The notes below the pieces were generated by a model. It saw only the letters and a list, made by a program, of their open reading frames with translations, was not told where the DNA came from and searched no databases. The translations under genes and the position numbers were made by a program. From assembly GCA_964553245.1 (NCBI GenBank), contig CAZKJM010000001.1, positions 296,977-360,976 on the forward strand: a stretch of DNA of 64,000 nucleotides. Direction: 5' to 3'. This document shows, one piece after another, positions 38,717-61,111 of this stretch. How positions within the stretch are numbered: the first letter of the stretch is position 1; each line of letters opens with the position of its first letter. This DNA comes from an uncultured Gammaproteobacteria bacterium (GTDB taxonomy: Bacteria > Patescibacteriota > Microgenomatia > Levybacterales > UBA12049).

Positions 38717-40213
38717 ATGCATAAATTTTTTGATAAAGTTTTCACGCGCTATCCAATAAAAACCAGAAGAGCTTTAGAAATATTGCCCGGTTTTTTTTCG
38801 TGGTCGCTAATTACTTTTCCGGTTTGGGGATCATTATTAATCCCCTATTATCTAGCTTATTTTATTTTATTTTTTGATATCTATTGGTTCTACAAATCTT
38901 TTGCCTTAGCAATAACTTCATACATTTCCTCAAGAAAAATTGCAGAATCAGAAAAAACAGACTGGAATAAAAAAGCAAGAAAATTGGAAAATTATAACAA
39001 GATGACTCATATTGCAATAATTCCAAACTATACGGAAAAGGCTGAAAAATTAAGGATAACCATTGAATCTTTAGCAAAGCAGACATTCCCTGCAAGAAGA
39101 ATTTACGTTATTTTAGCAATGGAAAAAAGAGAAAAAGACGCAAAGAAAAAATCAGATGAATTAATTAATATCTTTAAAAAAACTTTCGGTGATATTTTTG
39201 CAACGTTTCATCCAGACATAGAAGGAGAAGTAAAAGGAAAATCTTCAAACGAGGCTTATGCAGGAAAAACCGCTTACAAAAATTTAGTTCTTTCAAAAAA
39301 AATAGATTTGGATTACGCAACTATTTCTTCCGTTGACGCAGATTCTATTTTTGACAAGCAATATTTTGCTTATTTAACTTATAAGTTCTTAAACGATCCC
39401 AAGAAACACAACAAATTCTGGCAATCAGCAACTATTTACTACAGTAATATTTGGAAAGTTCCTGCTCCTACAAGAATCATTTCTTTTTTTGGAAGTCTTT
39501 GGAATACTGCGGTTCTAGTGCACAAAAACAGACTTATTACAAATGCTACATACTCGACGTCTCTTAAATTAATGAAAGAAATAGACTTTTGGGATACCGA
39601 CGTAATTCCCGAAGATTATCGAATTTTCTTTAAAGCTTTTTATAAAAAATTTGGGAATGTTTGGATAGATCCGATTTTTTTAAGAACATCTATGGATGCC
39701 GCTATGTCCTCCGGATATGTTAAGAGCCTAAAAAATAAGTATGATCAAGAAAGACGTTGGGCATGGGGAGCATCTGATGATTACTTGTTTATCAAATGGT
39801 GGCTTACTGTTCCAAATGTTCCTTTTGTCAGAAAGACCCTTATGCTCTTTCCTGTAATAAGAGACCATTTTCTATGGCCGACTAATTGGTTTATAATTAC
39901 AATAGCAGCCAATATTATGCCGTTAATTAATCCTGTTTTTTCAAGAACAACAATAGGATATAATTTACCAAAATTAGCAGGATTTATATTGACTTCTTCC
40001 ATGTTTTCACTTTTGGCGATGCTTATTGTTGATATAAAAAACAGACCATCGCATCTACCAAAACCTTCAAAGAAAAAGCAATTTTTATTCCCGATTGAAT
40101 TTGTTTTACTTCCGATTGTTGGGTTTTTCCTTTCAAGCCTGCCTGCACTTGTTTCCCATACTCAACTTTTACTTGGAAAAAGGTTAGAATATAAAGTAAC
40201 GGAAAAAATATGA
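38717..40213 (+). CDS. Membrane-embedded processive family-2 glycosyltransferase (cellulose/chitin/hyaluronan-synthase-like, QxxRW motif)
   Basis: 498 aa. It has 2 N-terminal TM helices, a GT-A domain with Asp motifs (SSVDADS) and QERRWAWG, and 4 or more C-terminal TM helices. Confidence 0.65.
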   Translation: MHKFFDKVFTRYPIKTRRALEILPGFFSWSLITFPVWGSLLIPYYLAYFILFFDIYWFYKSFALAITSYISSRKIAESEKTDWNKKARKLENYNKMTHIAIIPNYTEKAEKLRITIESLAKQTFPARRIYVILAMEKREKDAKKKSDELINIFKKTFGDIFATFHPDIEGEVKGKSSNEAYAGKTAYKNLVLSKKIDLDYATISSVDADSIFDKQYFAYLTYKFLNDPKKHNKFWQSATIYYSNIWKVPAPTRIISFFGSLWNTAVLVHKNRLITNATYSTSLKLMKEIDFWDTDVIPEDYRIFFKAFYKKFGNVWIDPIFLRTSMDAAMSSGYVKSLKNKYDQERRWAWGASDDYLFIKWWLTVPNVPFVRKTLMLFPVIRDHFLWPTNWFIITIAANIMPLINPVFSRTTIGYNLPKLAGFILTSSMFSLLAMLIVDIKNRPSHLPKPSKKKQFLFPIEFVLLPIVGFFLSSLPALVSHTQLLLGKRLEYKVTEKI

Positions 40214-41682
40214 AAACCTTAAGACTTCTTGAAAGAAGCAAAAGTTTTTGGTTTATTTTTACAAATCTACTCTTATTCTTTTTTTTAAGATTCCCCTCAC
40301 TTTTTGAACCATATTGGTATGGAGACGAGGGAATATATCAAGTTTTAGGAATGGGAATTAATAACGGTCGTATTTTATATCAACAAATTTTTGACAATAA
40401 ACCTCCTCTTTTATACATATTTTATAGTCTTTTTAACGGAGATCAATTTTATTTAAGATTAGCTTCTTTGGTCTTTGGTTTTTTTGCAATAGTCACTTTT
40501 TTTTACCTGGCAAAAAAGCTTTTTAAGAAAAATAACGCCGCATACATTTCTACATTTTTATTTACGTTTTTATTCGGCTTACCACTCATAGAAGGAAATA
40601 TTGCCAATGCCGAAAATTTTATGCTTTTTCCCATTCTTTCTGCTTTATATCTAGCAATTGACCATATCAACACAAAGCTCGAACGGAAAATGTTTTTTTG
40701 GTCAGGAATAATCTTGGGAATAGCATTTCTATTTAAAATCGTTGCTGTTTTTGACTTTTTAACACTGCTTATATTTTTATTAATAATAAGAACTCCAAAA
40801 ATTCTTGGAATAAAACTTAAGTCACAATTATTTTTAGAATTAAAAGACCTGTATTCTTTAATTATTGGGTTTTTAATTCCAATAATCGTAACTGCAATTT
40901 ATTTTATATCTATAAATGCTTACTCCGATTTTATAACTGCAACTTTCTTTTCCAATGTTGGTTATGTTGGTTATCATAATAAATTAATTATTCCACAAGG
41001 CTTTTTAATATTAAAATTAATACTTTTAAGTTTGTTTATTTTATTTGTTTTTGCAAGAAGAAATAAACTGTCTACAGAGGCAATATTTATATGGACTTGG
41101 CTTTCTTTTTCTCTTTTTAATGCGCTTTTTTCCCAAAGACCTTATACGCATTACTTATTAACACTCTTGCCAAGTTTTGCATTATTAATAGGTTTATTAT
41201 TTGTCGATAAAAAATTTCTTAAATTTAATCTCTTGCTAAGCGTTACCGTTATAATAATTGCTCAATCAAATTTCTGGATTTATTCTAAGAATTTAAAATA
41301 TTATAAAAACTTTATCGACTTTACCATTGGAAATAAATCTGTTTCCTCTTATCAGAATTTCTTTGATAGAAATACTCCCGTAGATTATCAGATTTCCCGA
41401 TATATTAAGGGAAAAATAAACCTGAATGATTCTATTTTTATCTGGGGAAATAATGCACAGCTTTATAAATTAACAGGAAAACTTCCTCCGGGAAAATATG
41501 CAGTAGCTTATCATATTGTAAATTATAAAGACGGTCTTAAAAATACAGGTGAGCAGCTTGAGAAAATAAAACCTAAGATAATAATCAATATGCCTAATGT
41601 GGCAAATTACCCATTCTCTCTTTCTCACTACAAGCCTTCAATTATGATAAATAATGTTCAAATTTATGAAAGAGTTTTTTAA
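40210..41682 (+). CDS. GT-C family glycosyltransferase (PMT_2/ArnT-like, GT39/83)
   Basis: 490 aa polytopic protein. The first extracytoplasmic loop carries YGDEGIY, a DE-type motif. Its start overlaps the GT2 stop (ATGA). Confidence 0.5.
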   Translation: MKTLRLLERSKSFWFIFTNLLLFFFLRFPSLFEPYWYGDEGIYQVLGMGINNGRILYQQIFDNKPPLLYIFYSLFNGDQFYLRLASLVFGFFAIVTFFYLAKKLFKKNNAAYISTFLFTFLFGLPLIEGNIANAENFMLFPILSALYLAIDHINTKLERKMFFWSGIILGIAFLFKIVAVFDFLTLLIFLLIIRTPKILGIKLKSQLFLELKDLYSLIIGFLIPIIVTAIYFISINAYSDFITATFFSNVGYVGYHNKLIIPQGFLILKLILLSLFILFVFARRNKLSTEAIFIWTWLSFSLFNALFSQRPYTHYLLTLLPSFALLIGLLFVDKKFLKFNLLLSVTVIIIAQSNFWIYSKNLKYYKNFIDFTIGNKSVSSYQNFFDRNTPVDYQISRYIKGKINLNDSIFIWGNNAQLYKLTGKLPPGKYAVAYHIVNYKDGLKNTGEQLEKIKPKIIINMPNVANYPFSLSHYKPSIMINNVQIYERVF

Positions 41683-42021: not shown

Positions 42022-43062
42022 ATGTTAAATACTACTAATTTAATCTTAATTCCATTTATTATTTCTTTTTTGTTAACTGTGGCGGCAACTCCACTTTCCT
42101 TAATTTTTATTAAAAAATACAAATTGATTGATGATCCCAAAAAAAGAAAACACCCTGCAATTATACATAAAAAACCTACTCCAAGAGGAGGAGGAATTCC
42201 CCTGTTTATTGGAACTATTGTTACAGGATTGTTTTTTTTGCCAATAACAAAAGTTACAATCGGAATTTTTATCGCATCGTTTTTATCGCTTGTTATTGGA
42301 ATACTGGACGATAAATATGACATTTCTCCTTATTTAAGATTTATTGTAAATATAATTTCCGCAATGATTGTTGTTTTTACAGGAGCAAATATTTTATTTA
42401 TTACAAATCCGTTTGGTGGAATTCTAAATTTGAATTTTCTTTCATACTTTGCGTCTATGCTCTGGATTATATGGGTAATGAATATGTTAAATTGGAGCAA
42501 GGGCGTAGATGGGCAAATGCCCGGAATTGTCACGATATCAGCAATTATTATTGGTTTCTTAAGTCTTCGTTTTAACGCAACTGATCAAAATACAATAATC
42601 AGCACTACTCTTTCATTTATTATTGCAGGTGCATCTTTAGGTTTTTTATTATTTAATTTTTATCCTGCAAAAATATTCCCAGGATATGGCGCAACCGCTA
42701 TTTACTTACTACTTGCGGTTGCATCAATACTGTCATCTGCAAAGCTTGCAACGGCAATTTTAGTTATGGGAATTCCGATGGTTGATGGCGTATTTACAAT
42801 TATAAGAAGAGTTCTTAGTGGAAAATCTCCTTTTTGGCATGACAACAAACATCTTCATCATCTTTTATTAAAAAAGGGTTGGAGCGTTAAAAAAATTGCA
42901 TTGTTTTATTGGTTTATTTCTGCTATATTGGGGGCAATTTCGCTACTTTTATCAAGTAAAGAAAAATTATTCGCAATAATAATGTTGGCGATTATAGTTG
43001 GAGGAGGAATATTGTTTCTTCAGCTAACAATAAAAAGCGAAGAAAATGAAAATAGCATTTGA
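42022..43062 (+). CDS. Polyprenyl-phosphate N-acetylhexosamine-1-phosphate transferase (WecA/TagO/MraY family, GT4)
   Basis: 346 aa. It has DDxxD (ILDDKYD), NxxNxxDGxDG-like (NMLNWSKGVDGQ) and about 10 TM helices. Its size fits WecA rather than MraY. Confidence 0.7.
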   Translation: MLNTTNLILIPFIISFLLTVAATPLSLIFIKKYKLIDDPKKRKHPAIIHKKPTPRGGGIPLFIGTIVTGLFFLPITKVTIGIFIASFLSLVIGILDDKYDISPYLRFIVNIISAMIVVFTGANILFITNPFGGILNLNFLSYFASMLWIIWVMNMLNWSKGVDGQMPGIVTISAIIIGFLSLRFNATDQNTIISTTLSFIIAGASLGFLLFNFYPAKIFPGYGATAIYLLLAVASILSSAKLATAILVMGIPMVDGVFTIIRRVLSGKSPFWHDNKHLHHLLLKKGWSVKKIALFYWFISAILGAISLLLSSKEKLFAIIMLAIIVGGGILFLQLTIKSEENENSI

Positions 43063-43987
43063 AATTTTTAGACTTTTAAGACCAAGACAATGGATTAAAA
43101 ACCTTGCGATTTTTGCCGCGATTATTTTTGCTGGAGAATTATTTAATTTTCCGGTTTTTGAAAAAGTTTTAATCGGTTTTTTTGTTTTCTGTGGACTTTC
43201 TTCCGCGACCTATATTATTAATGATCTTTTTGACATAGAAAAAGACCGACTTCACCCGTTTAAAAAATACCGCCCACTTGCAAATAAAAAGGTGCCTGTT
43301 CCTTTGGCAATAGTCATTGCCTGTGTTTTAATATTGTCATCGCTAACAACCAGTCTTTTTGTAACACCTGCTTTCGCGATAACTGCTTTTGTTTATTTAA
43401 TAATTCAGTTCTCTTACTCATTCCATCTTAAAACTATTGCGGCAATCGATATTTTGGTTATTGCTACAGGATATATTATCCGGGTTTATGCCGGAGAATT
43501 TGCCAGTGGTTTTCATACGTCTGTATGGATGTTGTTAACTACAATTTCGTTTTCTCTATTCTTAGCTGTTGGAAAAAGAAGATCGGAATTAACCTTACTT
43601 TCAAACAGTAAAGTTGCAAATATTGCCGCTACGAGAAAATCGCTCTCTCATTATTCCGACAGATTATTAGATGTTTATGCATCGATTTTCGCAACTTCCA
43701 CTTTTATTACTTATTCCCTTTTTACTTTTTTGGAAAATCCTAAAGGAGTAAGAATATCTTTAGATATTTTTTTTCCGGATTTCCTACCTGCATTCTTTCA
43801 AAAAAAATGGTTGATGATCACAATAATCCCCGTCGTATATGGAATAATGCGCTATCTTCAAGATATTTATGAAAAAAATGAAGGAGAGAGTCCTGAAAAA
43901 GTATTGTTGTCAGATAAGCCTTTGTTAATAAACGTTATTCTTTGGGTGTTTTTAGTTATTCTTATAATTTATTTTATCGGGGCTTAA
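43046..43987 (+). CDS. UbiA-family prenyltransferase, decaprenyl-phosphate phosphoribosyltransferase (DPPR synthase)-like
   Basis: 313 aa. N-terminal RPRQWIKN and the Asp-rich motif YIINDLFDIEKDRLHP match DPPRS-type UbiA proteins. It overlaps the WecA-like gene. Confidence 0.6.
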   Translation: MKIAFEIFRLLRPRQWIKNLAIFAAIIFAGELFNFPVFEKVLIGFFVFCGLSSATYIINDLFDIEKDRLHPFKKYRPLANKKVPVPLAIVIACVLILSSLTTSLFVTPAFAITAFVYLIIQFSYSFHLKTIAAIDILVIATGYIIRVYAGEFASGFHTSVWMLLTTISFSLFLAVGKRRSELTLLSNSKVANIAATRKSLSHYSDRLLDVYASIFATSTFITYSLFTFLENPKGVRISLDIFFPDFLPAFFQKKWLMITIIPVVYGIMRYLQDIYEKNEGESPEKVLLSDKPLLINVILWVFLVILIIYFIGA

Positions 43988-49904: not shown

Positions 49905-51563
49905 CTATAAATTAGGTCTTGCAGCGTCAATTGTTTCTTCGCTTTTACTAAGTATTTGTCTCCAGTCCCCAACCTTTCTAAATAAACGAATATACATCGT
50001 AGCTTCTTTAACATTGAACAACCATGTCAAAAAAATATACAAGGTTAAACCGATAACACTTGATATTCCTGTTAAAAACAAAAGATTTATTGTTCTTGTT
50101 GTATCAAAAACAAGTTGGTCTAAGAGCTTAATTGGAATATATAATGCGAATCCTGTAAAAATAGTGGCAATAACTATTTTACTAAGAGATTTTGTTAATT
50201 CGAGTTTATTGAATCCTTTAGTCTTTCTATCCAAGCATATAAACATTACGAAAATATTAAAAATGCTTGAAATCGAATATGAAATCGCTATCGCTTCTAT
50301 TCCAAATTTATAAACAAATACGGAAATTGACCCCAATAAAATCATTAAAAACGTAGAAACAGCGCCAATAATAAGCGGTGTTTTTGTATCATGAAGGGCA
50401 TAAAAACCTCTTGATAGTAAATAATTCAATGATTGAGCAAAAATCGATATACTAAAAAACGAAAGGGTTTTTCCTGTTAAAACCGTTGCCTGCCAATCAA
50501 ACTGAGAAGCACCAAATATTAACCTAACCACAGGAATTTTTAAGACAAATAAAAGCGCCGATATTGGCAAAACCAAGTAAAGCATTTGATTCATACTGGT
50601 TAAGATCGTAACCTTAAAATCTTCAATTTTTTCTTTCTCCCTTGCTAAGATCGGAAAAGCTGCTTGAGCAATTGCTTGACCACAAAGAACAACAGGAGCA
50701 AAGTACAAAGTCTGGGCATAATCAAAAATTACATAATTCCTGCCCGGATTTGGCAAGAAAGAAACCAGAGTAACTGTAATCAATGATCCTAACTGAAATA
50801 TTGCAATAGAAATAGTCCTTGGCCACATTAACTTAAAAACGGATAAAACTCCGCTGTTTTTAATCTCGAAAAGCGGTCGGAAAGAAAACCCAACTTTTTT
50901 AGTAAGAGGCAATTGCGTTAAAACAAAAATAAAAGCTCCAAGCAAAACCCCATAAGCTGCAGAAAAAATTCCAAAAAAAGGAAACAAGAAGAATATACCA
51001 ATAATTATTCCTAGATTATAAAAAGCTGCTGCTATTCCTGGGATAAAAAAATGATTATGAGACTGAAGAACTGCAGACAAAAAGCTTCCAATAATAAATA
51101 ATATTTCTCCAAAAATAATTATTCGCATAAGGCTGGCCATTAAAACTATTTGTTCTTTAGAAAAACCCGGAGCAATTAAACCAGAAAAATATTCAGCAAA
51201 AATAAAAAGAAAAACTGCTAAAAATGTAAATAATACTAAATTCAATGTTAAAAATGCAGATCCCAAACGATTGGCGTCTTCTTTTTTTTCTTTTCCCAAG
51301 AGATCGGAAAATATAGGTATAAATGCCGAAGAAAGAGCGCCAGCGATAATTAACTGAAATAAAAAGTCCGGAAGCTTTGAAGAAGCTAAATAAATCCCTA
51401 AAATATCCGATGCGCCAAAGATTGAAACCAATAAACGCTGCCTAATCAATCCAAGAATTTGAGACAAAATAATTGTTGCCATTATCACAAATGCTGCTGA
51501 TAAAATATTTGTTTGGCGTTTCAAAAGAAGACTTAATCCTTTTTGAAATAATTTTTTGGGCAT
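49905..51563 (-). CDS. murJ: Lipid II flippase MurJ (MviN family)
   Basis: 552 aa with about 14 TM helices and typical MurJ N-terminal motifs (ILSQILGLIRQRLL...). Confidence 0.8.
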   Translation of the reverse strand: MPKKLFQKGLSLLLKRQTNILSAAFVIMATIILSQILGLIRQRLLVSIFGASDILGIYLASSKLPDFLFQLIIAGALSSAFIPIFSDLLGKEKKEDANRLGSAFLTLNLVLFTFLAVFLFIFAEYFSGLIAPGFSKEQIVLMASLMRIIIFGEILFIIGSFLSAVLQSHNHFFIPGIAAAFYNLGIIIGIFFLFPFFGIFSAAYGVLLGAFIFVLTQLPLTKKVGFSFRPLFEIKNSGVLSVFKLMWPRTISIAIFQLGSLITVTLVSFLPNPGRNYVIFDYAQTLYFAPVVLCGQAIAQAAFPILAREKEKIEDFKVTILTSMNQMLYLVLPISALLFVLKIPVVRLIFGASQFDWQATVLTGKTLSFFSISIFAQSLNYLLSRGFYALHDTKTPLIIGAVSTFLMILLGSISVFVYKFGIEAIAISYSISSIFNIFVMFICLDRKTKGFNKLELTKSLSKIVIATIFTGFALYIPIKLLDQLVFDTTRTINLLFLTGISSVIGLTLYIFLTWLFNVKEATMYIRLFRKVGDWRQILSKSEETIDAARPNL

Positions 51564-51969: not shown

Positions 51970-52521
51970 ATGCCAAAACGGTCTCCAAATATAAACCTGC
52001 TTAAAACGGGAAGAGTAAATATTGCAGATAAGGTTATCGCGTGGGCACTTACAATAGGAAGATTAGTTGTTATAACAACGGAATTAATAGCACTTTTTGC
52101 ATTTGGATACCGTTTTATATTAGACAGAGAATTAATTGACTTACATTCAAAAATTAAGCAAGAACAGGCAATTATTGAATTTTATAAAAATAACGAGGAA
52201 AATTACCGAAATCTTCAAGACAGATTAACTGTAGCTTCAACTTTTGCCAATCAAGCCACTAAAAAGAATAAAGTGTTTGGGGATTTAGTTGGATTTACGC
52301 CATCAGGAATAGTATTTACAAATCTTTCAATAAGCGAAAATAAAATAAGAATTAATGCAATAACGGATTCGGTAATTTCTTTAAGTGCATTTATTAAATC
52401 TTTAAAGAATTATCCACTAGTAAATAATCTAAGTGTGGATAAAATTGAAAATAAGCCATCAACTTCGTTGATTAATTTTAGTGTTTCTGTAACTTTAAAA
52501 GAAGATGGAGTAAAAAAATAA
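51970..52521 (+). CDS. pilN: Type IV pilus assembly protein PilN-like
   Basis: 183 aa with the N-terminal INLL motif (NINLLK), a single TM helix and a periplasmic domain. Confidence 0.5.
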   Translation: MPKRSPNINLLKTGRVNIADKVIAWALTIGRLVVITTELIALFAFGYRFILDRELIDLHSKIKQEQAIIEFYKNNEENYRNLQDRLTVASTFANQATKKNKVFGDLVGFTPSGIVFTNLSISENKIRINAITDSVISLSAFIKSLKNYPLVNNLSVDKIENKPSTSLINFSVSVTLKEDGVKK

Positions 52522-52522
52522 T

Positions 52523-53146
52523 ATGTCAATAACAAAACGTGATTTTCTTAAAAACCTGCAAAAGAATAAATATCTTCAGCTTCTTCCTTTGTTTAAAGAA
52601 GAAAAAACACAAAAATTCATAACACTAGCGTTAACTTTGTTTACGTTATCTTTTTTTGGCATTTTCGCAATCGGACCAACCTTTTCAACGATCTCTAAAT
52701 TAAACAAAGAACTTGAGGATAATCGTTTTATTGAAGAACAATTAAAGCAAAAAATAAATAATTTATCCATACTTCAAGAAAAATACGCAGCGTTACAAAA
52801 TGATCTTCCTGAGATATTTTCCGCAGTACCTAAAAATCCCGATGTTCCAATTTTCGCAGGACAAATACAAACAGTAGCAAAAAACTCTAATATCAAAATT
52901 TTAGGTCTTCAGGTATACGAAGTGGAAGCGGTAAGTCAATCGAAAAATAATAAAAAATATACAAGTTTTAATTATAATATATCCGCTGAGGGAAATTATA
53001 GCAACATTTCCCAATTTATAAGCTCACTTATAAGAATGAAACGAATAACAACTGTTGATACAATTACCGTAACCAATACATCTAAAAATTTATCTGAAGA
53101 TAAATTAAGACTGACCATCAAGGGATCGTCTTATTTTAAAAAATAA
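52523..53146 (+). CDS. pilO: Type IV pilus assembly protein PilO-like
   Basis: 207 aa with a TM helix, a coiled coil and a C-terminal alpha/beta domain. It lies immediately downstream of the pilN-like gene. Confidence 0.45.
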   Translation: MSITKRDFLKNLQKNKYLQLLPLFKEEKTQKFITLALTLFTLSFFGIFAIGPTFSTISKLNKELEDNRFIEEQLKQKINNLSILQEKYAALQNDLPEIFSAVPKNPDVPIFAGQIQTVAKNSNIKILGLQVYEVEAVSQSKNNKKYTSFNYNISAEGNYSNISQFISSLIRMKRITTVDTITVTNTSKNLSEDKLRLTIKGSSYFKK

Positions 53147-53147
53147 A

Positions 53148-53456
53148 ATGAAACAAAGAGATATAATATTTTTACTGGCGTCGTCTTTTTTTATAGTACT
53201 TATTTGGATTATTTTTGAGATTATTCACAGCTCAACAACCTCAACTATTCCAGAAAAATTAAATGTGCAAATTATCCCAATAAAACCGGATTTTGATTCA
53301 AAAACAATTGCTGATATTAAAACGAGGGATAATATCAAGCCAATTTATGAAGCATACCAAATCTCAATAACCCCAACTCCATCGGAAAATCAACAAATAA
53401 TTCCAACGCCTGAGATTAACGAAAATCAAACTGCTTCCGAAGGAGCAAAAAGATAG
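53148..53456 (+). CDS. Small membrane-anchored protein (PilP-like position)
   Basis: 102 aa with a TM helix and a Pro/Thr-rich C-terminus. Confidence 0.3.
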   Translation: MKQRDIIFLLASSFFIVLIWIIFEIIHSSTTSTIPEKLNVQIIPIKPDFDSKTIADIKTRDNIKPIYEAYQISITPTPSENQQIIPTPEINENQTASEGAKR

Positions 53457-54901
53457 TGAAAAAAAGTTTTTGGAATAAAAAAATCCCAACTCTTTTGGGA
53501 TTAATATTAATCACCATCGGCATCGGAGTAACTTCTTATTTTATAAAACAAGGGGTATTTTATATAATTAAAGCCACCCCCACAAATAACCCTCAAGATG
53601 TAAGAATTACTAACATAACTGATTCTTCATTTACTGTTTCTTACTCAACAAAAGAAAAAGTATTGGGATCGTTAAACTATGGAGAAAACGAAGCTCTTAA
53701 TAAAAAAGTTCTTGATGACAAAGACCAGCAATCCGGTAATTTAACGCCCAAAATAATACATAATATTACCGTTAGAAACTTAAAACCATCAACGAAATAT
53801 TATTTCTCGATAACAAGCGGCAATGAAACATATCTTAATAATGAAATTCCCTACGAAATATTAACAGGAACCATGATTAAAGCAGAACCGCCTGACCAAG
53901 AACCATTAAGCGGAAAAATTCTTTTACCAAACGGAGACGCGCCATTAGAAGCAGTTGTTTACGCAACCATAAAAGATGCTCAAATAATTTCAACTTATGT
54001 AAAAAATGATGGAACATATATATTACCTCTTAATTCATTAAGAACCGCCGATTTAAAATCATATTTGACGCTAAAAGAAGACATGAATATTAAACTGCTA
54101 ATGGTTGGTGACAATTATTCTTCCAATGTTATTGTATTAAGAAAACAAATAAATCCCGTTCCATTAGTAACCCTTTCAAAAAACTACGATTTTACAACCA
54201 GTTTTGATGAAGAATCAACAGAATCGGCTAAGTTTGAAAAATTTCCTTCATTCCCAGCAATCTCAACTGATAGAACCGCAGGCGAACCGGAAATAATTAC
54301 ACCTCAAAATAATCAGGAATTTTCTGATGATCAACCAAGATTTAACGGCAAGGCCTTACCAAATGAAAGTGTTAAAATAATTATTAATTCCGACAATAAA
54401 ATAGAAACAGAGATAAAAGCAGATATTTACGGAAACTGGAGCTTTAGACCAACAGAGCCACTCTCTCCGGGTGAGCACACAATTTCGATAATTACAAGGG
54501 ATACGCAGCAAATTTTAAGAACAATTACCAATTCATTCACTGTTTACGCTTCGGGCAGTAAGTTTACAGATACTGTCTCTCCAACGCCAACAATAGCAAT
54601 AACACAAACCCCAACTATTACCATAACTCCCACTATTCAACCATCAATTACCACAACGCCGACAATAACAATAACGCCCATACCAACATCAACCCCAGTT
54701 TCAACAATAACCCCTATGCCAACAACTGAACCAATTATTATATCTAGTCCCACCCCTACTATTGTTGTAATTACTCCAATCCCTACACCAACCAGTCCTG
54801 GAAGCAACTCTGTAATCAATATGGGGATTATTGGTATTATCACTGCCTTTGTTGGTATAATTTTACTTCTTATAAGCCGCGGGAGCATTTCTTTTATATG
54901 A
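53456..54901 (+). CDS. Membrane-anchored surface protein with Ig-like/FN3-like domains, a Pro/Thr/Ile-rich repeat stalk and a C-terminal TM helix
   Basis: 481 aa. The bacterial Ig-like motif is PRFNGKALPNESV...DIYGNWSF...LSPGEHTI. The stalk is (TPTITITPT)n. The C-terminal hydrophobic anchor is IIGIITAFVGIILLLI. Confidence 0.4.
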   Translation: MKKSFWNKKIPTLLGLILITIGIGVTSYFIKQGVFYIIKATPTNNPQDVRITNITDSSFTVSYSTKEKVLGSLNYGENEALNKKVLDDKDQQSGNLTPKIIHNITVRNLKPSTKYYFSITSGNETYLNNEIPYEILTGTMIKAEPPDQEPLSGKILLPNGDAPLEAVVYATIKDAQIISTYVKNDGTYILPLNSLRTADLKSYLTLKEDMNIKLLMVGDNYSSNVIVLRKQINPVPLVTLSKNYDFTTSFDEESTESAKFEKFPSFPAISTDRTAGEPEIITPQNNQEFSDDQPRFNGKALPNESVKIIINSDNKIETEIKADIYGNWSFRPTEPLSPGEHTISIITRDTQQILRTITNSFTVYASGSKFTDTVSPTPTIAITQTPTITITPTIQPSITTTPTITITPIPTSTPVSTITPMPTTEPIIISSPTPTIVVITPIPTPTSPGSNSVINMGIIGIITAFVGIILLLISRGSISFI

Positions 54902-56184
54902 AAATTGGAATAATTGGCGCCGGATTAACCGGATTAACTGCTGCCTATGAATTGTCAAAAAAAGGACATGATGTTATCGTGTTCGAAAAAGAAAATATCC
55001 CAGGAGGATTTGCATCTGGATTCAAAAATAGCCATTGGGAATGGCAACTTGAAAGATATTATCACCATTGCTTTACAAACGATAATTCTATTTTAGAATT
55101 AGCAAAAGAAATTAATTTTAATTTTTTAAGAATTCGACCTAAAACGGCAACATTTATAAATAGAAAAATTTACCAACTAGACTCTCCTGTAACTTTACTA
55201 AAATTTCCTTTATTAAATCCTCTTCAGCGATTAAGAATGGGTATAAGTCTTGCTCTTCTTAGATATAATCCATTTTGGAAATTAACTGAATCGAAAAAAG
55301 CAAGTGAGATTTTACCAAAATTAATGGGCAAAAAGGGGTATGAATTGATTTGGGAACCACTATTTAAAAATAAATTTTCAACTTTCAAGCGCCAAATTTC
55401 TCTTGTATGGTTTTGGGCAAGAGTAAAAAAAAGAACTACGGAACTAACGTATCCTGAGGGAGGATTCCAAAAATTTATAGAAAAATTAACCGAAGCGATT
55501 AAGAAAAAAAACGGATTAATCTTTTTAAATAATGAAGTTGTAAAAATAAAAGAAAATGAAAAAATCTTCATTACAACTAAAACCAAAAATGGCGAATTAA
55601 ATAATCATCAATTTGATAAGATTATTTTTACATTACCATCGAAACTTTTTATTAAAATTAATCCATCAACACCAAAGACATATAGAGAAAAACTTTTAAA
55701 ATTTAAGTATTTATGCGTCCATAATCTTGTTCTAAGACTTAAAGAACCATTTTTAAAAAATGACACCTATTGGTTAAATATTTGCGATGAAAAATCTCCA
55801 GTAACTGGAGTTGTTGAGCATACTAATTTTATAGATAAAAAATACTATAAAAATGAACACATTATATATTTATTAAACTATCTTGAAAAAACAGACAAAA
55901 GATATAAGATGGACGCTTGTGAACTTGTTAATTTTTATGATTCATTTTTAACAAAAATAAATAAAAACTATAAGAAAAATATAATTGGAATAAAACTTTT
56001 CAAAGACGATTTTGCGCAAACAATAATTTCCACAAATTATTCAAAAAATATTTTGCCCTTTACAACACCTTTTAAAAACATTTATCTTGCTAATTCAAGT
56101 CAAGTTTATCCCTGGGACAGAGGCACTAATTATGCTGTTGAGTTAGGAAAAAAGATTGCTAAATTTGTTAATAAAAAAGGGTAA
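54898..56184 (+). CDS. glf: Flavin-dependent UDP-galactopyranose mutase-like protein (Glf/UGM family) or related NAD(P)/FAD Rossmann oxidoreductase
   Basis: 428 aa. It has the dinucleotide-binding motif IGIIGAGLTGLTAAYEL...GG. YYHHCFTNDNSILE aligns with the UGM motif GPHIFHTDNETVW. Confidence 0.45.
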   Translation: MKIGIIGAGLTGLTAAYELSKKGHDVIVFEKENIPGGFASGFKNSHWEWQLERYYHHCFTNDNSILELAKEINFNFLRIRPKTATFINRKIYQLDSPVTLLKFPLLNPLQRLRMGISLALLRYNPFWKLTESKKASEILPKLMGKKGYELIWEPLFKNKFSTFKRQISLVWFWARVKKRTTELTYPEGGFQKFIEKLTEAIKKKNGLIFLNNEVVKIKENEKIFITTKTKNGELNNHQFDKIIFTLPSKLFIKINPSTPKTYREKLLKFKYLCVHNLVLRLKEPFLKNDTYWLNICDEKSPVTGVVEHTNFIDKKYYKNEHIIYLLNYLEKTDKRYKMDACELVNFYDSFLTKINKNYKKNIIGIKLFKDDFAQTIISTNYSKNILPFTTPFKNIYLANSSQVYPWDRGTNYAVELGKKIAKFVNKKG

Positions 56185-57823
56185 ATTGAAAATTTTAAAT
56201 TTATTTAAGAAAAATAAAACCGAAACATTATTAATTTTATTTTCGTTGTTTTTTAGCTCATGGCTGATGTTTTCAACGTTTTCCTATAACAATGGCTACA
56301 TGCTTATTGCATCAAAAGCATGGAGCGATTTTGCAAGTCATATTCCGCTTATTAGATCTTTTTCGCTGGGTGTTAATTTTCCACCTGAATATCCTCTGTT
56401 TCCAGGTGCTCCAATTCACTATCATTTTCTTTTTTACCTAATAGTTGGGTTGCTTGAAAAAACAGGAATTAGAATTGATTTTGCATTAAATTCATTATCT
56501 ATTATCGGGTTCTCTGTATTATTAGTAATTGTTTATTTATTTGCAAAATTAATTTTTAAATCTAAAGCCATTGGAGTATTAAGTGTAATATTATTTCTTT
56601 TTAATGGCTCATTGAGCTTTATTTATTTTTTTAAAAAAAACTATATATTCTCTGAAAATTTTCTAATCAATATCTTAAACAACAAAAACTTTTCTTCTTT
56701 TGATCCTTATTACGGCGACGGAATAGTATCTGCTTTTTGGAATTTAAATATTTACACCAACCAAAGACATCTTTCTTTATCTTATGCTGTTTCTCTGTTT
56801 TTAATTTATGTAATTACCAAGAAAATGCTTTCTAATAAAGATATTCCTATAAAAGATATCATTCTCATCGGTTTAATATTGGGAATTTCTTTCCTTCTAA
56901 ACATGGCTGTCTTTACAATAACGGCAATTATTGTTTTTTGCTTTGCAATATTATTTAAGAAATATCGCTTTTCATTGATACAATTATTATTTATAGCAGC
57001 GCTAATTGCTTCACCGTTTTTTCTATACTTAAATTCCAGTAATTTTCTGTCGTTTTTTTCTTTTAATCCTGGGTATTTAATTTCTCAGCATTTAACACTT
57101 TTTTCATTTATTAATTATTGGCTTTATAATCTTGGTCTGCATATTTTATTAATACCCCTAGGTTTTTTATTGGTAGCAAAAAAGCTTAAAAAAATCTTTA
57201 TTCCTTTTCTGTTTATTTTTGTTATCGCAAACTTATTTCAACTTTCTTCAGAAATGGCTGCTAATCATAAATTAATAAATTATTTTATGATTATTGGCGC
57301 TACGTTTTCTTCATATACCTTAATTTACCTTTGGCGTAAAAATTTTTATTTAAAATTTTTTGTAATTATTGCTATCTTCTTTTTAATTATTTCAGGAATT
57401 ATTGATTTTTTCCCAATATATAATGACACAAAAATCCCGCTAGCAGATTATCCTGTTAACTCTGACGTAAAATGGGTAATGGAAAATACGTCAAAAAATT
57501 CTGTTTTTTTAAATTCTGAATATTTATATACACCCGCATCTTTAGCTGGTAGAAAAATATTTTTAGGATGGCCATATTTTGCTTGGTCACAAGGCTATAA
57601 TACTTACAAAAGAGATTTGCAAAGAAAAAGTCTCTTAGAGATCCACCAAGCATATTCACTGTGTAAAGAATTAAAAAAAAATAACTTGCAATTTATAGAA
57701 ATTATAAAAAACGAAAATATAGATGGTTCTTATATTTCTTTTCTTGATTTAAATTTTAAAAAAGTATATGAAAATAAAAACACTGGATATATTATTTACA
57801 AAAATAATGATTATTGTAAATAA
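56156..57823 (+). CDS. Large polytopic membrane protein (GT-C-like, uncharacterised)
   Basis: 555 aa with about 13 TM helices. The first loop carries a conserved block DFASHIPLIRSF...PPEYPLFPG.PIHYHFLFY. Confidence 0.3.
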   Translation: MLNLLIKKGKLKILNLFKKNKTETLLILFSLFFSSWLMFSTFSYNNGYMLIASKAWSDFASHIPLIRSFSLGVNFPPEYPLFPGAPIHYHFLFYLIVGLLEKTGIRIDFALNSLSIIGFSVLLVIVYLFAKLIFKSKAIGVLSVILFLFNGSLSFIYFFKKNYIFSENFLINILNNKNFSSFDPYYGDGIVSAFWNLNIYTNQRHLSLSYAVSLFLIYVITKKMLSNKDIPIKDIILIGLILGISFLLNMAVFTITAIIVFCFAILFKKYRFSLIQLLFIAALIASPFFLYLNSSNFLSFFSFNPGYLISQHLTLFSFINYWLYNLGLHILLIPLGFLLVAKKLKKIFIPFLFIFVIANLFQLSSEMAANHKLINYFMIIGATFSSYTLIYLWRKNFYLKFFVIIAIFFLIISGIIDFFPIYNDTKIPLADYPVNSDVKWVMENTSKNSVFLNSEYLYTPASLAGRKIFLGWPYFAWSQGYNTYKRDLQRKSLLEIHQAYSLCKELKKNNLQFIEIIKNENIDGSYISFLDLNFKKVYENKNTGYIIYKNNDYCK

Positions 57824-57846
57824 TTTTAATAGAATATTATAACGAT

Positions 57847-60039
57847 ATGGAAGTACTTGATTTGTTGTACGTTTTTAAATGGTGGCTAATGATTTTTTTA
57901 AACGGGATTGTTTTTTTTCCTTTAACTAAAACTATTCTTAAGAATTTTTTTGACAGAGGATATATTTTCTCAAAAGTCATTGGAATAATAATGACTTCTT
58001 ATTTAATCTATGTTTTAGGATCGCTAAAACTTTTAAGCTTTACGATAAATAACATCATTTTTATTTTAATAGTTTCTCTCTTGGTAAATTACTTACCATT
58101 TGTCTATTTAAAAACGAAAAAAAAATTAAGTTTTGATAAAAATTTATTGTCTAACATAAAAACAATTCTTTTAATATGCTTATTAGAAGAATTAATTTTT
58201 ATTGTTGCCTTTTTTTCTTGGTCGTACATAAAAATTCACCAACCAGATATTAACGGACTCGAGAAATTTATGGATTTCGGAATCATAAATTCGATATTAA
58301 GAACCGATTATTTTCCAGCAAAAGATACCTGGTTTACTCCTCTAGCAATAAATTATTATTATTTTGGACACCTAACGACTGCTTTTTTAACTAAATTATC
58401 TAATACCTCATCAAACATATCCTTTAATCTAATGCAAGCTTTAGTTTTTGCACTTTGTTTTACAGGATCGTTTTCAATAGGAGCAAATTTAGTTTTTCTT
58501 ATCAAGGATAAAACTTCTAAATTATTGCGTTGGTTAAAAATTTTCTCAGCCGGATTGATTACTGCTTTTTTAGTAACCATGTCAGGAAATTTACATATTA
58601 TTTATGGTTTTTTTAGCCCTTATAAAAATGAATCTCCAATCCCACCGTGGGAATTAATATTTCAACCCTTAATGTTTCCTAATGCATATTGGTATCCAAA
58701 TGCAACAAGATTCATACACAATACTATTCATGAATTTCCCATGTACTCATGGGTTGTATCAGATCTACATGGACACGTTCTAGATATACCATTTGTACTG
58801 TTAAATATTGCCTTTTCCCTACATTTGCTTATTGATAAAAAAATTAACTTTTTTAAAATAATACTGTTTGCATTTTTCATCTCTATTTCTTATATGACAA
58901 ATGCTTGGGATGGAGTAATTTATCTAATGCTTGCGATGGCTACGATAATTTGTGTAAATTTAAAGAGTTTTTCCGGAAAAAAATTTATATTAAAAACTTT
59001 ATCCTATTGTTTTACTCTCTTCTTTTCCTATTTTGTTTTTTCGTTGCCCTTTAATCTTTTTTTTAAACCGTTTGTTTCAGGAATTGGATTAATCTGCTCT
59101 CCTGATTTCTTAATTAAGCTGCAAAAACTAGGACCATTCATATTTGAGACCGATCATTGTTTAAGATCACCTATTTATCAATTATTTATTTTACATGGAT
59201 TTTTTTATTTTTTTGTGGCTTGTTTCATTTTATTTATTGTTAAAATTATTAATAAAAACAAAACACAAATTAATAAAGCGGATTTCTTTGTCATTATTCT
59301 AATCATTGTCTCAACACTTTTAATATTAATTCCTGAATTTGTTTACATAAAAGATATTTATCCAGCACATTACAGAGCAAATACAATGTTTAAACTCACT
59401 TATCAATCTTTTATTATGCTGTCTATTTCCTCCTCCTATATTGCAATAAGAATCTTAAATGATAGGAGAAATATTATTCAAAGATTTAAAGGGAAATTGT
59501 TCTTTGCTATTTTTACGATTGTGTCTTTTTCGTTTATATCTTTAGTTTTAGTCTATCCTTTCCTTTCAATTGCTTCTTATTATGGTGATCTAAAGGTAAA
59601 AAAGAACCTAGACGGTACATTATATTTAAAAGAGCTTTACCCAAATGACTATAAAGCAATTGACTGGATAAATAAAAACATAAAAAAACAACCCGTTATC
59701 CTTGAAGCACAGGGAGACTCGTATACTGATTTTGCTAGGGTATCCGCAAACACCGGTCTTCCAACAGTATTGGGATGGACCGTACACGAGTGGCTCTGGA
59801 GAGGTAGTTATAATATTCCATCGCCAAGAATAGAAGACGTTCAATTACTTTATGAAACATCTGATCTTGCAAAAACAAAAAATCTTCTCAAAAAATATAA
59901 TGTTTCTTTTGTTTTTGTAGGAAAATTAGAAATCGATAAATATAAATATTTAAATGATGATAAATTTAATAACTTAGGGAAAATTATTTATCAAAGCGGG
60001 GAAACAAAAATTTATAAAATAAATTCTATATTTCTTTAA
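57847..60039 (+). CDS. YYY-motif membrane protein (DUF2298/Chlor_Arch_YYY family; putative GT-C-like glycosyltransferase)
   Basis: 730 aa with many TM helices. The family signature is PLAINYYYFGHL. It has a C-terminal soluble domain. Confidence 0.45.
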   Translation: MEVLDLLYVFKWWLMIFLNGIVFFPLTKTILKNFFDRGYIFSKVIGIIMTSYLIYVLGSLKLLSFTINNIIFILIVSLLVNYLPFVYLKTKKKLSFDKNLLSNIKTILLICLLEELIFIVAFFSWSYIKIHQPDINGLEKFMDFGIINSILRTDYFPAKDTWFTPLAINYYYFGHLTTAFLTKLSNTSSNISFNLMQALVFALCFTGSFSIGANLVFLIKDKTSKLLRWLKIFSAGLITAFLVTMSGNLHIIYGFFSPYKNESPIPPWELIFQPLMFPNAYWYPNATRFIHNTIHEFPMYSWVVSDLHGHVLDIPFVLLNIAFSLHLLIDKKINFFKIILFAFFISISYMTNAWDGVIYLMLAMATIICVNLKSFSGKKFILKTLSYCFTLFFSYFVFSLPFNLFFKPFVSGIGLICSPDFLIKLQKLGPFIFETDHCLRSPIYQLFILHGFFYFFVACFILFIVKIINKNKTQINKADFFVIILIIVSTLLILIPEFVYIKDIYPAHYRANTMFKLTYQSFIMLSISSSYIAIRILNDRRNIIQRFKGKLFFAIFTIVSFSFISLVLVYPFLSIASYYGDLKVKKNLDGTLYLKELYPNDYKAIDWINKNIKKQPVILEAQGDSYTDFARVSANTGLPTVLGWTVHEWLWRGSYNIPSPRIEDVQLLYETSDLAKTKNLLKKYNVSFVFVGKLEIDKYKYLNDDKFNNLGKIIYQSGETKIYKINSIFL

Positions 60040-61111
60040 TAATACAATCATCCTTATATATCTCGCAGTTTAAATATTCTTTTATTTCACTATAGTTTCC
60101 GTTTCCTATTCTTGGAACAAGTACCCATTCATAATTATACTCATTCGTAGACTCCGGATTAATTAAAAGACCTTCTTTGTTGCCTAAATTATCTCCGACA
60201 TTAAGAGTCACGCTCTTAATCTCCGCTGCTTTTAATTTCTGAGCTAATCTTAAAAAATCATCAAATTCTTCTTTTTTAATATTTGTGTCTATGCTACTAC
60301 TTAAAACATCATAAAGATCTAAAAATTTAACGGGGTTTAAAAACATTTGCATCGAAAAAACTTTATCCTTAAAAGACTTTATAATTTTTTCCTGCCTTTT
60401 GCTTCTAGCAAAATCCGAACCTTCGGTTCCTTTTGCGTGTCTTGATCTAACAAATTGTAAAGCCGTCTTACCATCCATATGTTGTAAGCCTTTGTTAAAA
60501 TGTAAATGCTCATAGCGACAAGGAAATGCATCCAACTGCGATGATGCTGTTGCAAGTCCTTCCAACTCTTCTTCCTTATGCCCACAAGGATCGTTCTCCT
60601 TGCCTTCGATTGGATATTCAAAATCATCAAATGAATTCTCCACGCTTACATCTAACCCGCCAATCAGATCTACGGCCTTTACGAAACCATTAAAGTCAAT
60701 TCTAAACGTATAATCTATTTGTAGATTTGTAATTTTTTTTACAACCGCTTGGGACAAAATTATCCCTCCACCTTTTTTTTTACTCTCCCCGGTTGAATAA
60801 GCAGTATTTACTTTTGCATTAAGCTCCGATAACCATAGATCTCTTGGTAATGATATCAGCGTTACCTTATCGTTTTTAGGACTTATACTAGCTATCATAA
60901 TGGTATCTGTTAAATTTGGTCCATCATGATTTTCCCCACCAATTCCTAAAAGCAGTATATTTAATCTTTTGTTTTCCGATTTCACTTTTATTTCACTGTT
61001 AAAGATTAATTCAAATAAAAATGGAACAAAATTTAAGGCTCTAATAGCCGTTCTACCGATAAAAAAAATTAATATCAAAATTAATATTGCAGGAATTATT
61101 TTTTTACGCAT
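60026..61111 (-). CDS. LytR-CpsA-Psr (LCP) family cell-wall glycopolymer phosphotransferase
   Basis: 361 aa with an N-terminal TM helix. The motifs are LLLGIGGENHDGPNLTDTIMIASISPKNDKVTLISLPRDLW and RSRH. Confidence 0.75.
   Translation of the reverse strand: MRKKIIPAILILILIFFIGRTAIRALNFVPFLFELIFNSEIKVKSENKRLNILLLGIGGENHDGPNLTDTIMIASISPKNDKVTLISLPRDLWLSELNAKVNTAYSTGESKKKGGGIILSQAVVKKITNLQIDYTFRIDFNGFVKAVDLIGGLDVSVENSFDDFEYPIEGKENDPCGHKEEELEGLATASSQLDAFPCRYEHLHFNKGLQHMDGKTALQFVRSRHAKGTEGSDFARSKRQEKIIKSFKDKVFSMQMFLNPVKFLDLYDVLSSSIDTNIKKEEFDDFLRLAQKLKAAEIKSVTLNVGDNLGNKEGLLINPESTNEYNYEWVLVPRIGNGNYSEIKEYLNCEIYKDDCIIKEI

Follow-up and report, generated by a model that had tools for sequence, protein, structure and literature searches.

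The 64-kb window analyzed here (the whole stretch of DNA under study, from contig CAZKJM010000001.1) is AT-rich DNA (26–38% GC) of Levybacteria/Microgenomates-type Patescibacteria, members of the Candidate Phyla Radiation (CPR). The nearest database proteins with a named source likewise come from metagenome-assembled genomes of this type. At positions 54898–61111, the window carries a glycan/envelope gene block, in agreement with an original prediction made from the sequence alone. The block comprises a flavoprotein, two polytopic membrane proteins (one of the DUF2298/YYY family and one that we call TMA555), and a protein of the LytR-CpsA-Psr (LCP) family. Our analysis leans, by a little more than an even chance, toward a minimal cell-surface glycosylation cassette conserved in Microgenomates-type Patescibacteria. 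With a similar, slightly favorable confidence, we propose that the flavoprotein is an auxiliary enzyme working on the lipid-linked glycosyl donor of the adjacent transferases of glycosyltransferase fold C (GT-C).

In the proposed mechanism, the cytoplasmic FAD enzyme would act at the inner membrane face on a polyprenyl-phosphate-linked glycosyl donor. Once flipped, the donor would serve two paralogous transferases of GT-C fold on the outer side of the membrane, namely the DUF2298/YYY protein and TMA555, whose first long external loops each contain a conserved Asp. As acceptor, we favor the Thr/Pro-rich stalk of a surface protein whose gene lies directly upstream in the same gene string, the alternative being a wall glycopolymer anchored by the neighboring LCP enzyme. 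We infer every substrate, the redox direction, and the acceptor.

Organization of the gene block

All four open reading frames (ORFs) of the original prediction are present at the positions and on the strands that it had assigned to them. The flavoprotein gene (428 aa; 54898–56184, + strand) is followed by the TMA555 gene (56156–57823, +), the gene of the 730-aa DUF2298/Chlor_Arch_YYY protein (57847–60039, +), and the gene of the 361-aa LCP-family protein (60026–61111, − strand). The two amino acid strings quoted in the prediction are likewise found, YYHHCFTNDNSILE at residues 54–67 of the flavoprotein and INYYYFGH at residues 168–175 of the 730-aa protein. The boundaries overlap or nearly abut, as had been noted: the upstream stop codon overlaps the ATG of the flavoprotein gene, the TMA555 and DUF2298 genes are 23 nt apart, and the convergent LCP gene shares 14 nt with the 3′ end of the DUF2298 gene. 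TMA555 has two possible TTG start codons, at 56156 (555 aa) and at 56186 (545 aa). The former would give a 29-nt overlap with the flavoprotein gene, whose stop codon lies at 56182–56184. The start at 56186 appears more likely because it matches a 545-aa database protein (P0121) and follows the sequence AAGGG. A promoter scan of the window returned 56 promoter-like sites versus 55 expected from shuffled sequence, and is uninformative in such AT-rich DNA, as is the terminator scan.

Fold and family of the flavoprotein

The flavoprotein matches the Pfam family Amino_oxidase over its full length (8.8e-21) and belongs to NF005560/PRK07233, a family named 'hypothetical protein', with 389.9 bits versus a cutoff of 252 and residues 1–426 aligned to positions 1–430 of the 435-position profile. 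The next NCBIfam matches, namely the PRK07208 models, CrtD, HpnE, protoporphyrinogen oxidase (PPO), and CrtI, all score far under their own cutoffs. Specifically, the HpnE model gives 56 versus 283, and the PPO model (HemY, TIGR00562) gives 43.5 bits versus 97.85, covering only the N-terminal 155 residues. A homolog from Agrobacterium scores 510 bits with NF005560 and aligns to HpnE over its full length with 88.5 bits. Overall, sequence-model scores put the NF005560 family nearer to HpnE and CrtD/CrtI than to UDP-galactopyranose mutase (UGM). More than 7,600 homologs exist; those with a named source are mostly from Patescibacteria and are called 'protoporphyrinogen oxidase' or 'FAD-dependent oxidoreductase'.

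The flavoprotein sequence contains no signal peptide or transmembrane (TM) segment. Its AlphaFold model, computed from an alignment of 40 homologs, is confident (pLDDT 93.5), and the top Foldseek matches are PPO from M. xanthus and B. subtilis, rice phytoene desaturase (PDS; TM-score 0.83), monoamine oxidase, and L-amino acid oxidase. The predicted structure is that of a cytoplasmic FAD-dependent enzyme with an amine-oxidase/PPO/PDS-type fold. Because this fold separates amine-oxidase subfamilies poorly, we examined individual residues. Fifteen positions are invariant in the NF005560 family across 83 homologs from three phyla: Y55, H56, D62, W152, K159, W171, R175, L183, W292, Y328, Q374, Y404, P405, D407, and R408. 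The polar and aromatic residues among them (H56, D62, K159, R175, Q374, Y404, D407, R408, and several Trp) are more in keeping with a sugar-phosphate head group than with an unsubstituted hydrocarbon, which suggests that a polar head group is bound at the active site.

By these comparisons, the flavoprotein falls into a separate subfamily of the amine-oxidase/PPO/PDS/UGM superfamily, which corrects a tempting mis-annotation: it is not a UGM, nor is it the 'protoporphyrinogen oxidase' that its JGI name implies. PPO was rejected because the score lies under the family cutoff and the phylum is not known to make heme. Nor are Patescibacteria known to make carotenoids or hopanoids, and no genes for any of the three pathways turned up among the ~50 window ORFs scanned.

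Comparison with UDP-galactopyranose mutase

The original prediction had taken the flavoprotein for a UGM-like enzyme of furanose-nucleotide synthesis. We assembled a reference set of nine UGMs (E. coli K-12 Glf and those of Lactococcus, Bacteroides, Nocardia, Phaeobacter, Sinorhizobium, Azospirillum, Sphingobium, and Deinococcus), in which 57 positions are invariant, and aligned their profile to that of the 83 flavoprotein homologs. The two profiles align locally over ~325 columns (Prob 98.3, E 1.9e-14, values uncalibrated versus PPO and CrtI alignments), and UGM appears to be a true but more distant relative. The resemblance to a UGM sequence block that had prompted the prediction is real, with H56 and T60-N61-D62 in register with E. 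coli Glf, and is best read as shared superfamily ancestry rather than UGM membership.

Eleven of the 57 UGM invariants are retained as the same conserved residue, including the FAD glycines, the flavin-side His, F58, the mobile-loop Arg, and E281; the other 46 are not conserved. H56 of E. coli Glf corresponds to H57 of the flavoprotein (96% conserved), whose own H56 is invariant, and the mobile-loop R170 corresponds to R175, invariant in all 83 sequences. The residues that contact UDP and its diphosphate are lost: Y151 is replaced by Leu, T152 by Leu or Phe, E298 by Asn, and R278, the second essential Arg, by Ala or Gly. Of the conserved His and Arg residues that were to be compared with Glf, the flavin-side His and the mobile-loop Arg are in place and the second Arg is gone. 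UGM residues H59 and Y181/F182 fall opposite gaps, and W156 becomes Phe. Others are partly kept, such as R247 (Lys, 51%), N268 (Asn, 66%), and Y311 (Phe, 66%), in an alignment whose C-terminal part is unreliable.

The flavoprotein has no match to GLF (PF03275) at E ≤ 0.01, and no UGM model stands among the 25 best NCBIfam matches of either the window protein or its Agrobacterium homolog. Similarly, no UGM is found in the first 50 Foldseek matches of the model, in which PDS and PPO score higher. A better fit to PPO and amine oxidases, with UGM active-site residues missing, had been named as the outcome that would speak against a UGM, and this is largely what we observe. The block also lacks a GT-A gene of the galactofuranosyltransferase type. 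GT-C enzymes take lipid-linked donors, not nucleotide sugars (PMC11127046), and the product of a nucleotide-furanose mutase would therefore not be a direct substrate for them. Although the flavin-side His and one Arg are shared, we consider it very improbable that the flavoprotein is UGM-like and supplies the downstream transferases with a furanose nucleotide sugar or a comparable furanose donor.

The polytopic GT-C-like proteins

The 730-aa protein matches DUF2298 (PF10060, 2e-90) and TIGR03662, Chlor_Arch_YYY (504.5 bits versus a cutoff of 300.25), as its signature had suggested, and the residues N169-Y170-Y171-Y172-F173-G174-H175 are invariant in its alignment. More than 3,200 homologs of this family were found. 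It consists of ~15 TM helices and a C-terminal extracytoplasmic globular domain. In the predicted structure, the helical core superposes on solved GT-C enzymes, identifying the protein as a GT-C-fold glycosyltransferase at the level of the model. The best structural matches include AftA, AftB, and AftD; protein mannosyltransferase (PMT) and AglB/STT3 score equally high. By its fold, the protein would use a polyprenyl-phosphate-linked donor.

Three conserved loops stand out, LEKxMD143F...INYYYFGH, YWYPNATRFIxNTIHEFP, and GWTVHEWLWRG. The invariant residues E139 and D143 lie in the first long loop after helix 98–129, and a Lys-rich loop (res. 85–100) would place the YYY loop outside by the positive-inside rule, as read from the sequence. 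An invariant acidic residue in the first external loop fits a GT-C enzyme, with a putative catalytic role. The invariant TIHEFP string of the flexible second loop recalls, in our view, the 'TIXE' motif of oligosaccharyltransferases (OSTs), and we take GWTVHEWLWRG to stand where OSTs carry WWDYG. The protein differs from both PMT (GT39) and OSTs (AglB/STT3/PglB, GT66) in having no PMT, PMT_2, or STT3 Pfam match and no WWDYG motif, and membership in the OST family was rejected for the missing STT3 match and motif. The 'YYY domain' of the literature proved to be the unrelated Y_Y_Y domain.

TMA555 has no Pfam, NCBIfam, or PDB match, and its motif reads IHYHF, not NYYYF. PDB sequence searches with the proteins and profiles of both DUF2298 and TMA555 gave nothing usable. 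Among 1439 TMA555 homologs, those with a named source are from Patescibacteria, and none of the 120 listed has a Pfam domain. The protein starts like a canonical GT-C enzyme, with a cytoplasmic Lys-rich N-terminus and TM1 followed by a conserved loop (AWSD58F...FPPxYPLFxGxPIxYHF) in which D58 is invariant. An hhalign comparison of the TMA555 and DUF2298 profiles extends over 449 columns (Prob 85.6, E 5.6e-6) and brings FPPxYPLFxGxPIxYHF of TMA555 into register with YFPPKDMWFTPxxINYYYF of DUF2298, and LGWPYFAWSQGY with LGWTVHEWLWRGxY. Of 120 DUF2298 proteins, 47 are weakly matched by a hidden Markov model (HMM) of TMA555, whereas 91 polytopic control proteins yield no match. TMA555 is probably a short, divergent paralog of DUF2298. 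Hence, of the two GT-C-like membrane proteins predicted, the DUF2298 protein is borne out by its own models, and TMA555 probably qualifies as its paralog on the strength of the long alignment and the specific HMM cross-matches. TMA555 is unrelated to the PMT_2 protein of the window (Prob 9.9), to a PMT_2-like neighbor of the flavoprotein in locus L004 (0.2), and to a 692-aa protein encoded at 32007–34085 (+) (0.3). The latter, put forward in the original prediction as a fourth GT-C-like candidate, has no Pfam match and no profile similarity to DUF2298 or TMA555.

Conserved gene neighborhoods

Relatives of the flavoprotein number at least 599 in a one-genome-per-species scan, from which 80 loci of Microgenomates-type Patescibacteria and Chloroflexota were kept; counts refer to 59 Patescibacteria-like and 17 Chloroflexota loci. 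The gene order is conserved across related genomes, as the prediction had proposed to check. In Levybacteria, it reads MurJ (−), S20, PilN, PilO, a small TM protein, the stalk protein, the flavoprotein, a variable cassette, DUF2298, LCP (−), tpiA (−), and uvrD (+). The variable cassette contains one to three polytopic proteins of ~550 aa, many of them PMT_2-like, often together with an extended short-chain dehydrogenase/reductase (SDR) and a 189-aa protein, and the present window has its minimal form. A large polytopic GT-C-like gene directly follows the flavoprotein in 41 of the 59 loci (27 PMT_2-like, 11 TMA555, 1 DUF2298, and 2 other). In more distant lineages, the flavoprotein–GT-C pair is retained despite rearrangement: L047 and L073 have TMA555 after the flavoprotein and a divergent DUF2298 gene before it, and the pair is likewise present in L039, L043, and L055.

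In the window, seven co-directional genes run from PilN (51970) to the end of DUF2298 (60039) with overlaps or with gaps of at most 23 nt. The first three encode PilN (Pfam, 8.4e-9), PilO (3.3e-14), and a 102-aa single-TM protein (51970..53456, +), followed by the surface stalk protein (53456..54901, +), and the genes at 51970–53456 abut the following ones with gaps of no more than 1 nt.

Homologs in other phyla lie in differently built clusters. Those of Agrobacterium, Burkholderia, and a Rhodobacteraceae plasmid (NF005560, 510 bits) share one operon type, with the order methyltransferase (two of three operons), HAD-UbiA phosphoribosyltransferase, DprE1-like protein (372 bits), DprE2-like protein (160 bits), SDR epimerase/dehydratase, flavoprotein, and GtrA. 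These operons are flanked by 529–578-aa proteins with 8–11 predicted TM segments and no family match (L082:9318-12781, L084:8675-10411). The flanking proteins are not detectably related to DUF2298 or TMA555 and are candidates for novel GT-C transferases. In Embleya, the flavoprotein homolog follows a DegT aminotransferase and an ArnC/GtrB-sized GT2. Among the 17 Chloroflexota loci, the flavoprotein is preceded by an LPG_synthase_TM flippase-like gene in 8 and followed by a UDP-glucose dehydrogenase gene in 6. Judged by these assignments, the common denominator across the four phyla is machinery that makes, flips, or uses polyprenyl-phosphate sugars.

The window itself encodes a UbiA-family homolog of polyprenyl-phosphate phosphoribosyltransferase (43046..43987, +; NF008978, decaprenyl-phosphate phosphoribosyltransferase, 235.5 bits versus an equivalog cutoff of 207). 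This protein may synthesize a lipid-linked pentofuranose donor, in a CPR bacterium. Its gene is overlapped by 17 nt by that of a WecA/MraY-type GT4 (42022–43062, +), just upstream of which are a PMT_2 GT-C protein (40210–41682) and a 498-aa membrane GT2 (38717–40213). The UbiA homolog is thus not adjacent to the flavoprotein but 11 kb upstream of it, in a UbiA/GT4/PMT_2/GT2 group that spans 11–16 kb upstream.

Three further features of the related loci were noted. The 189-aa family, which has no Pfam or NCBIfam match, lies directly before DUF2298 in most of 19 loci (e.g., L003:12409-12975, L007, L010, L011, and L023), usually after the extended SDR (GalE/HpnA-like); both are absent from the window block, and tblastn found neither an SDR epimerase nor the 189-aa family in the window. 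A fusion of VKOR and dihydroorotate dehydrogenase (~517 aa), an unusual domain combination, is encoded within a few kb of the flavoprotein in L034, L036, L037, L038, and L041 (Roizmanbacteria-like and Woesebacteria), directly adjacent to it in two of the five. Lastly, records of metagenome-assembled genomes for L001, L003, L004, L010, L024, L026, and others are titled 'uncultured Gammaproteobacteria bacterium' or 'Pseudomonadales' (several of them TPA records). Their proteins are 50–66% identical to those of Levybacteria loci, whose full gene order they also have, so the titles look mislabeled.

Function of the flavoprotein

A role on the glycosyl donor is suggested by the neighbors in four phyla that handle polyprenyl-phosphate sugars, together with the GT-C fold of DUF2298, the tight gene string, and the UbiA homolog in the window. 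Three-component GT-C systems are known to be diversified by auxiliary enzymes acting on a lipid-linked pentofuranose, either an SDR or DprE1/E2, and more elaborate GT-C clusters with several candidate epimerases have been noted (PMC11127046). By analogy, the step that we favor, though only tentatively, is a DprE1-like redox reaction on the sugar, in a role like that of DprE1 in decaprenyl-phospho-arabinose (DPA) synthesis; a non-redox isomerization of the lipid-linked sugar seems distinctly improbable.

Several observations weigh against a donor-acting enzyme. The block has no donor synthase, GtrA, or MATE-type flippase (a MurJ-family match lies 3 kb upstream), tblastn detected no DprE1, DprE2, or GtrA in the window, and the UbiA gene adjoins the flavoprotein in just one of the 80 loci. 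The SDR that neighbors the flavoprotein in 16 related loci and also in Proteobacteria is missing from the window block. The AlphaFold2 model of DUF2298 has low confidence in exactly its conserved loops, and literature searches returned no paper on the function of PRK07233/NF005560 or DUF2298/TIGR03662. Adjacency alone is weak evidence because the Patescibacteria synteny is in large part that of fairly close relatives and extends to MurJ, tpiA, and uvrD. Moreover, the characterized enzymes nearest to the flavoprotein, HpnE and CrtD/CrtI in sequence and PDS in structure, have isoprenoid chains as substrates.

This last point raises the serious alternative that the flavoprotein alters the lipid carrier, saturating or desaturating the phosphate-proximal isoprene unit of polyprenyl phosphate to give a dolichol-like lipid, alone or with the extended SDR. 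The carrier is also, of all parts, the only one common to the four kinds of neighborhood. If so, carrier remodeling (e.g., α-saturation) would supply a dedicated carrier for archaeal/eukaryote-like GT-C enzymes such as DUF2298, in lineages comprising Patescibacteria, Chloroflexota, and some Proteobacteria and Actinomycetota. We nevertheless find this unlikely: a literature search turned up no flavoprotein polyprenol reductase, a 2026 review of polyisoprenoid biosynthesis names no bacterial enzyme of this type, the searchable literature reports no saturated carriers from these phyla, and the proteobacterial operon sets the gene among sugar-modifying enzymes. In addition, the polar invariants D62, Q374, D407, and R408, close to the predicted flavin site, are equally compatible with a sugar and with a phosphate. 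About equally unlikely, in our judgment, is that there is no functional unit, with an inherited gene order in a small compact genome and a flavoprotein engaged in unrelated metabolism. The same Levybacteria order does include MurJ, S20, PilN/O, tpiA, and uvrD, the flavoprotein of L032 is directly followed by LCP with no polytopic gene, and the promoter and terminator scans give no help. However, the flavoprotein–GT-C adjacency outlives rearrangement in the five loci L047, L073, L039, L043, and L055, the neighboring polytopic proteins come from different families, and homologs in three other phyla sit in independently organized lipid-linked-sugar clusters.

The LCP protein, the stalk protein, and the acceptor

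The prediction of an LCP-family gene converging from the opposite strand is confirmed by thresholds passed in both Pfam (PF03816, LytR_cpsA_psr, 1.1e-31, 110.5 bits) and TIGR00350 (97.6 bits versus a cutoff of 62.3). The protein has an N-terminal TM anchor (hydrophobic res. 5–23) and carries the strings TDT (res. 68–70), LPRD (res. 88–91), and VRSRH (res. 221–225), which we take to be the pyrophosphate-site motifs of LCP enzymes.

The surface stalk protein matches Pur_ac_phosph_N/fn3 and Big_13 in Pfam. It consists of an N-terminal TM segment, an fn3-like domain, a Big_13 Ig-like domain, a ~100-aa Thr/Pro/Ile-rich stalk, and a C-terminal TM anchor. All 41 orthologs examined keep a Thr/Pro/Ser-rich window (fraction 0.43–0.77 over 60 aa) and a hydrophobic C-terminus, and many have LPxTG-like strings (LPKTGSS, LPPT, PTGS) just before the C-terminal TM segment. 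The stalk gene lies directly upstream of the flavoprotein in 35 of the 59 Patescibacteria loci, and a sortase is encoded in the same window (9405–9956, −). Encoded after PilN/PilO, the stalk protein may be anchored by sortase and glycosylated at the cell surface, and it is a plausible candidate acceptor of glycosylation.

We rank protein O-glycosylation of the stalk slightly above a wall polymer ligated by LCP because Pmt/AglB-type enzymes match DUF2298 as well as wall arabinosyltransferases do, and because the LCP adjacency is equally conserved with tpiA and uvrD. In the wall-polymer alternative, the GT-C enzymes would build or decorate a polyprenyl-diphosphate-linked polymer that the convergent LCP enzyme ligates to peptidoglycan. 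We regard this as possible but less than probable. The solid LCP family assignment speaks for it, as do the DUF2298–LCP adjacency kept in ~25 loci (including L059 and L067 of Chisholmbacteria), the wall arabinosyltransferases AftA, AftB, and AftD among the best structural matches, and the WecA-type initiating transferase and MurJ in the window. Conversely, LCP lies on the opposite strand and is linked to tpiA as tightly as to DUF2298, the distant loci L047, L073, and L039 keep the flavoprotein–GT-C pair without LCP, and the protein glycosyltransferases PMT and AglB/STT3 reach scores equal to those of the Aft enzymes. The gene string itself, moreover, encodes a conserved Thr/Pro-rich protein. 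The putative transfer of the GT-C product to peptidoglycan by LCP is suggested by conserved convergent adjacency only, a trait that extends to the housekeeping genes tpiA and uvrD/pcrA.

Comparison with known glycosylation systems

Stalk glycosylation with a modified lipid-linked donor would have a close parallel in the three-component systems (GtrA/GtrB/Gtr* and the Citrobacter youngae pentofuranose system with a GT136 GT-C enzyme; Kelly et al. 2024, PMC11127046), in which a GT-C enzyme on the outside uses a flipped donor of cytoplasmic origin, and the product varies through auxiliary enzymes that act on the lipid-linked sugar. Shared with the window are its phosphoribosyltransferase homolog and its several GT-C proteins. 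The window differs in that the block has no donor synthase or flippase of its own, in that the GT-C families are DUF2298 and a new, probable paralog, and in that an amine-oxidase-fold flavoprotein, for which those systems have no described counterpart, would be the auxiliary enzyme. In the mycobacterial DPA pathway (UbiA/Rv3806c, DprE1, DprE2, Rv3789, and Emb/Aft), a flavoenzyme acting on a lipid-linked sugar likewise feeds GT-C enzymes. The proteobacterial homologs share an operon with UbiA, DprE1-like, DprE2-like, and GtrA proteins, and DUF2298 matches Aft enzymes. However, DprE1 has an FAD_binding_4/VAO fold, and the flavoprotein accompanies DprE1/E2 in Proteobacteria but occurs without either in the window. 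Patescibacteria are not known to make arabinan or galactan.

UGM shares the fold superfamily, the homologous columns, the His and one mobile-loop Arg, and a glycan context with the flavoprotein; it is set apart by the missing GLF match, by the 46 invariants that are not conserved, and by the partners, which here are GT-C and not GT-A. As for PDS, CrtI/CrtD, HpnE, and PPO, the flavoprotein falls far under the family cutoffs, and its invariants are polar and aromatic rather than those of a hydrophobic tunnel. The D-arabinofuranosylation of pilin by TfpW in Pseudomonas aeruginosa ties a GT-C enzyme to type IV pilus genes and a DPA-type donor, and the cassette of the window follows PilN–PilO. In contrast to TfpW, there is no adjacent pilin gene and no homology, and the pilus link here comes from gene order only.

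The general logic of a lipid-linked donor, GT-C transferases, and auxiliary enzymes is therefore known; what is new is the enzyme families in these roles and, possibly, the chemistry of the flavoprotein. Patescibacteria rely on surface contacts with host cells, and their envelope glycans are essentially uncharted. The present analysis ties two large families, NF005560 and DUF2298/YYY, to lipid-linked GT-C-type glycosylation, with TMA555 as a third, probably related to DUF2298. If the flavoprotein is an auxiliary donor enzyme or a modifier of the carrier lipid, the toolkit of extracytoplasmic glycosylation grows accordingly. Its function is directly testable because homologs occur within compact DPA-type clusters in cultivable Agrobacterium, Rhizobium, Burkholderia, and Embleya.

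Other features of the window

The original prediction had linked the block to a cell-wall theme through murJ, ddl, and FemAB-like genes nearby. Family matches bear out murJ (49905–51563, −) and ddl (36949–37860, −), whereas no FemAB-family match was found among the window ORFs scanned against Pfam. Unrelated to the block are two ClpB/ClpC-type AAA+ chaperone genes close together (16659–19064, −, and 22321–25002, −), a thermolysin-type M4 peptidase with an SdrD B-like domain (19471–21759, −), and an RTX-repeat protein (7234–8667, +).

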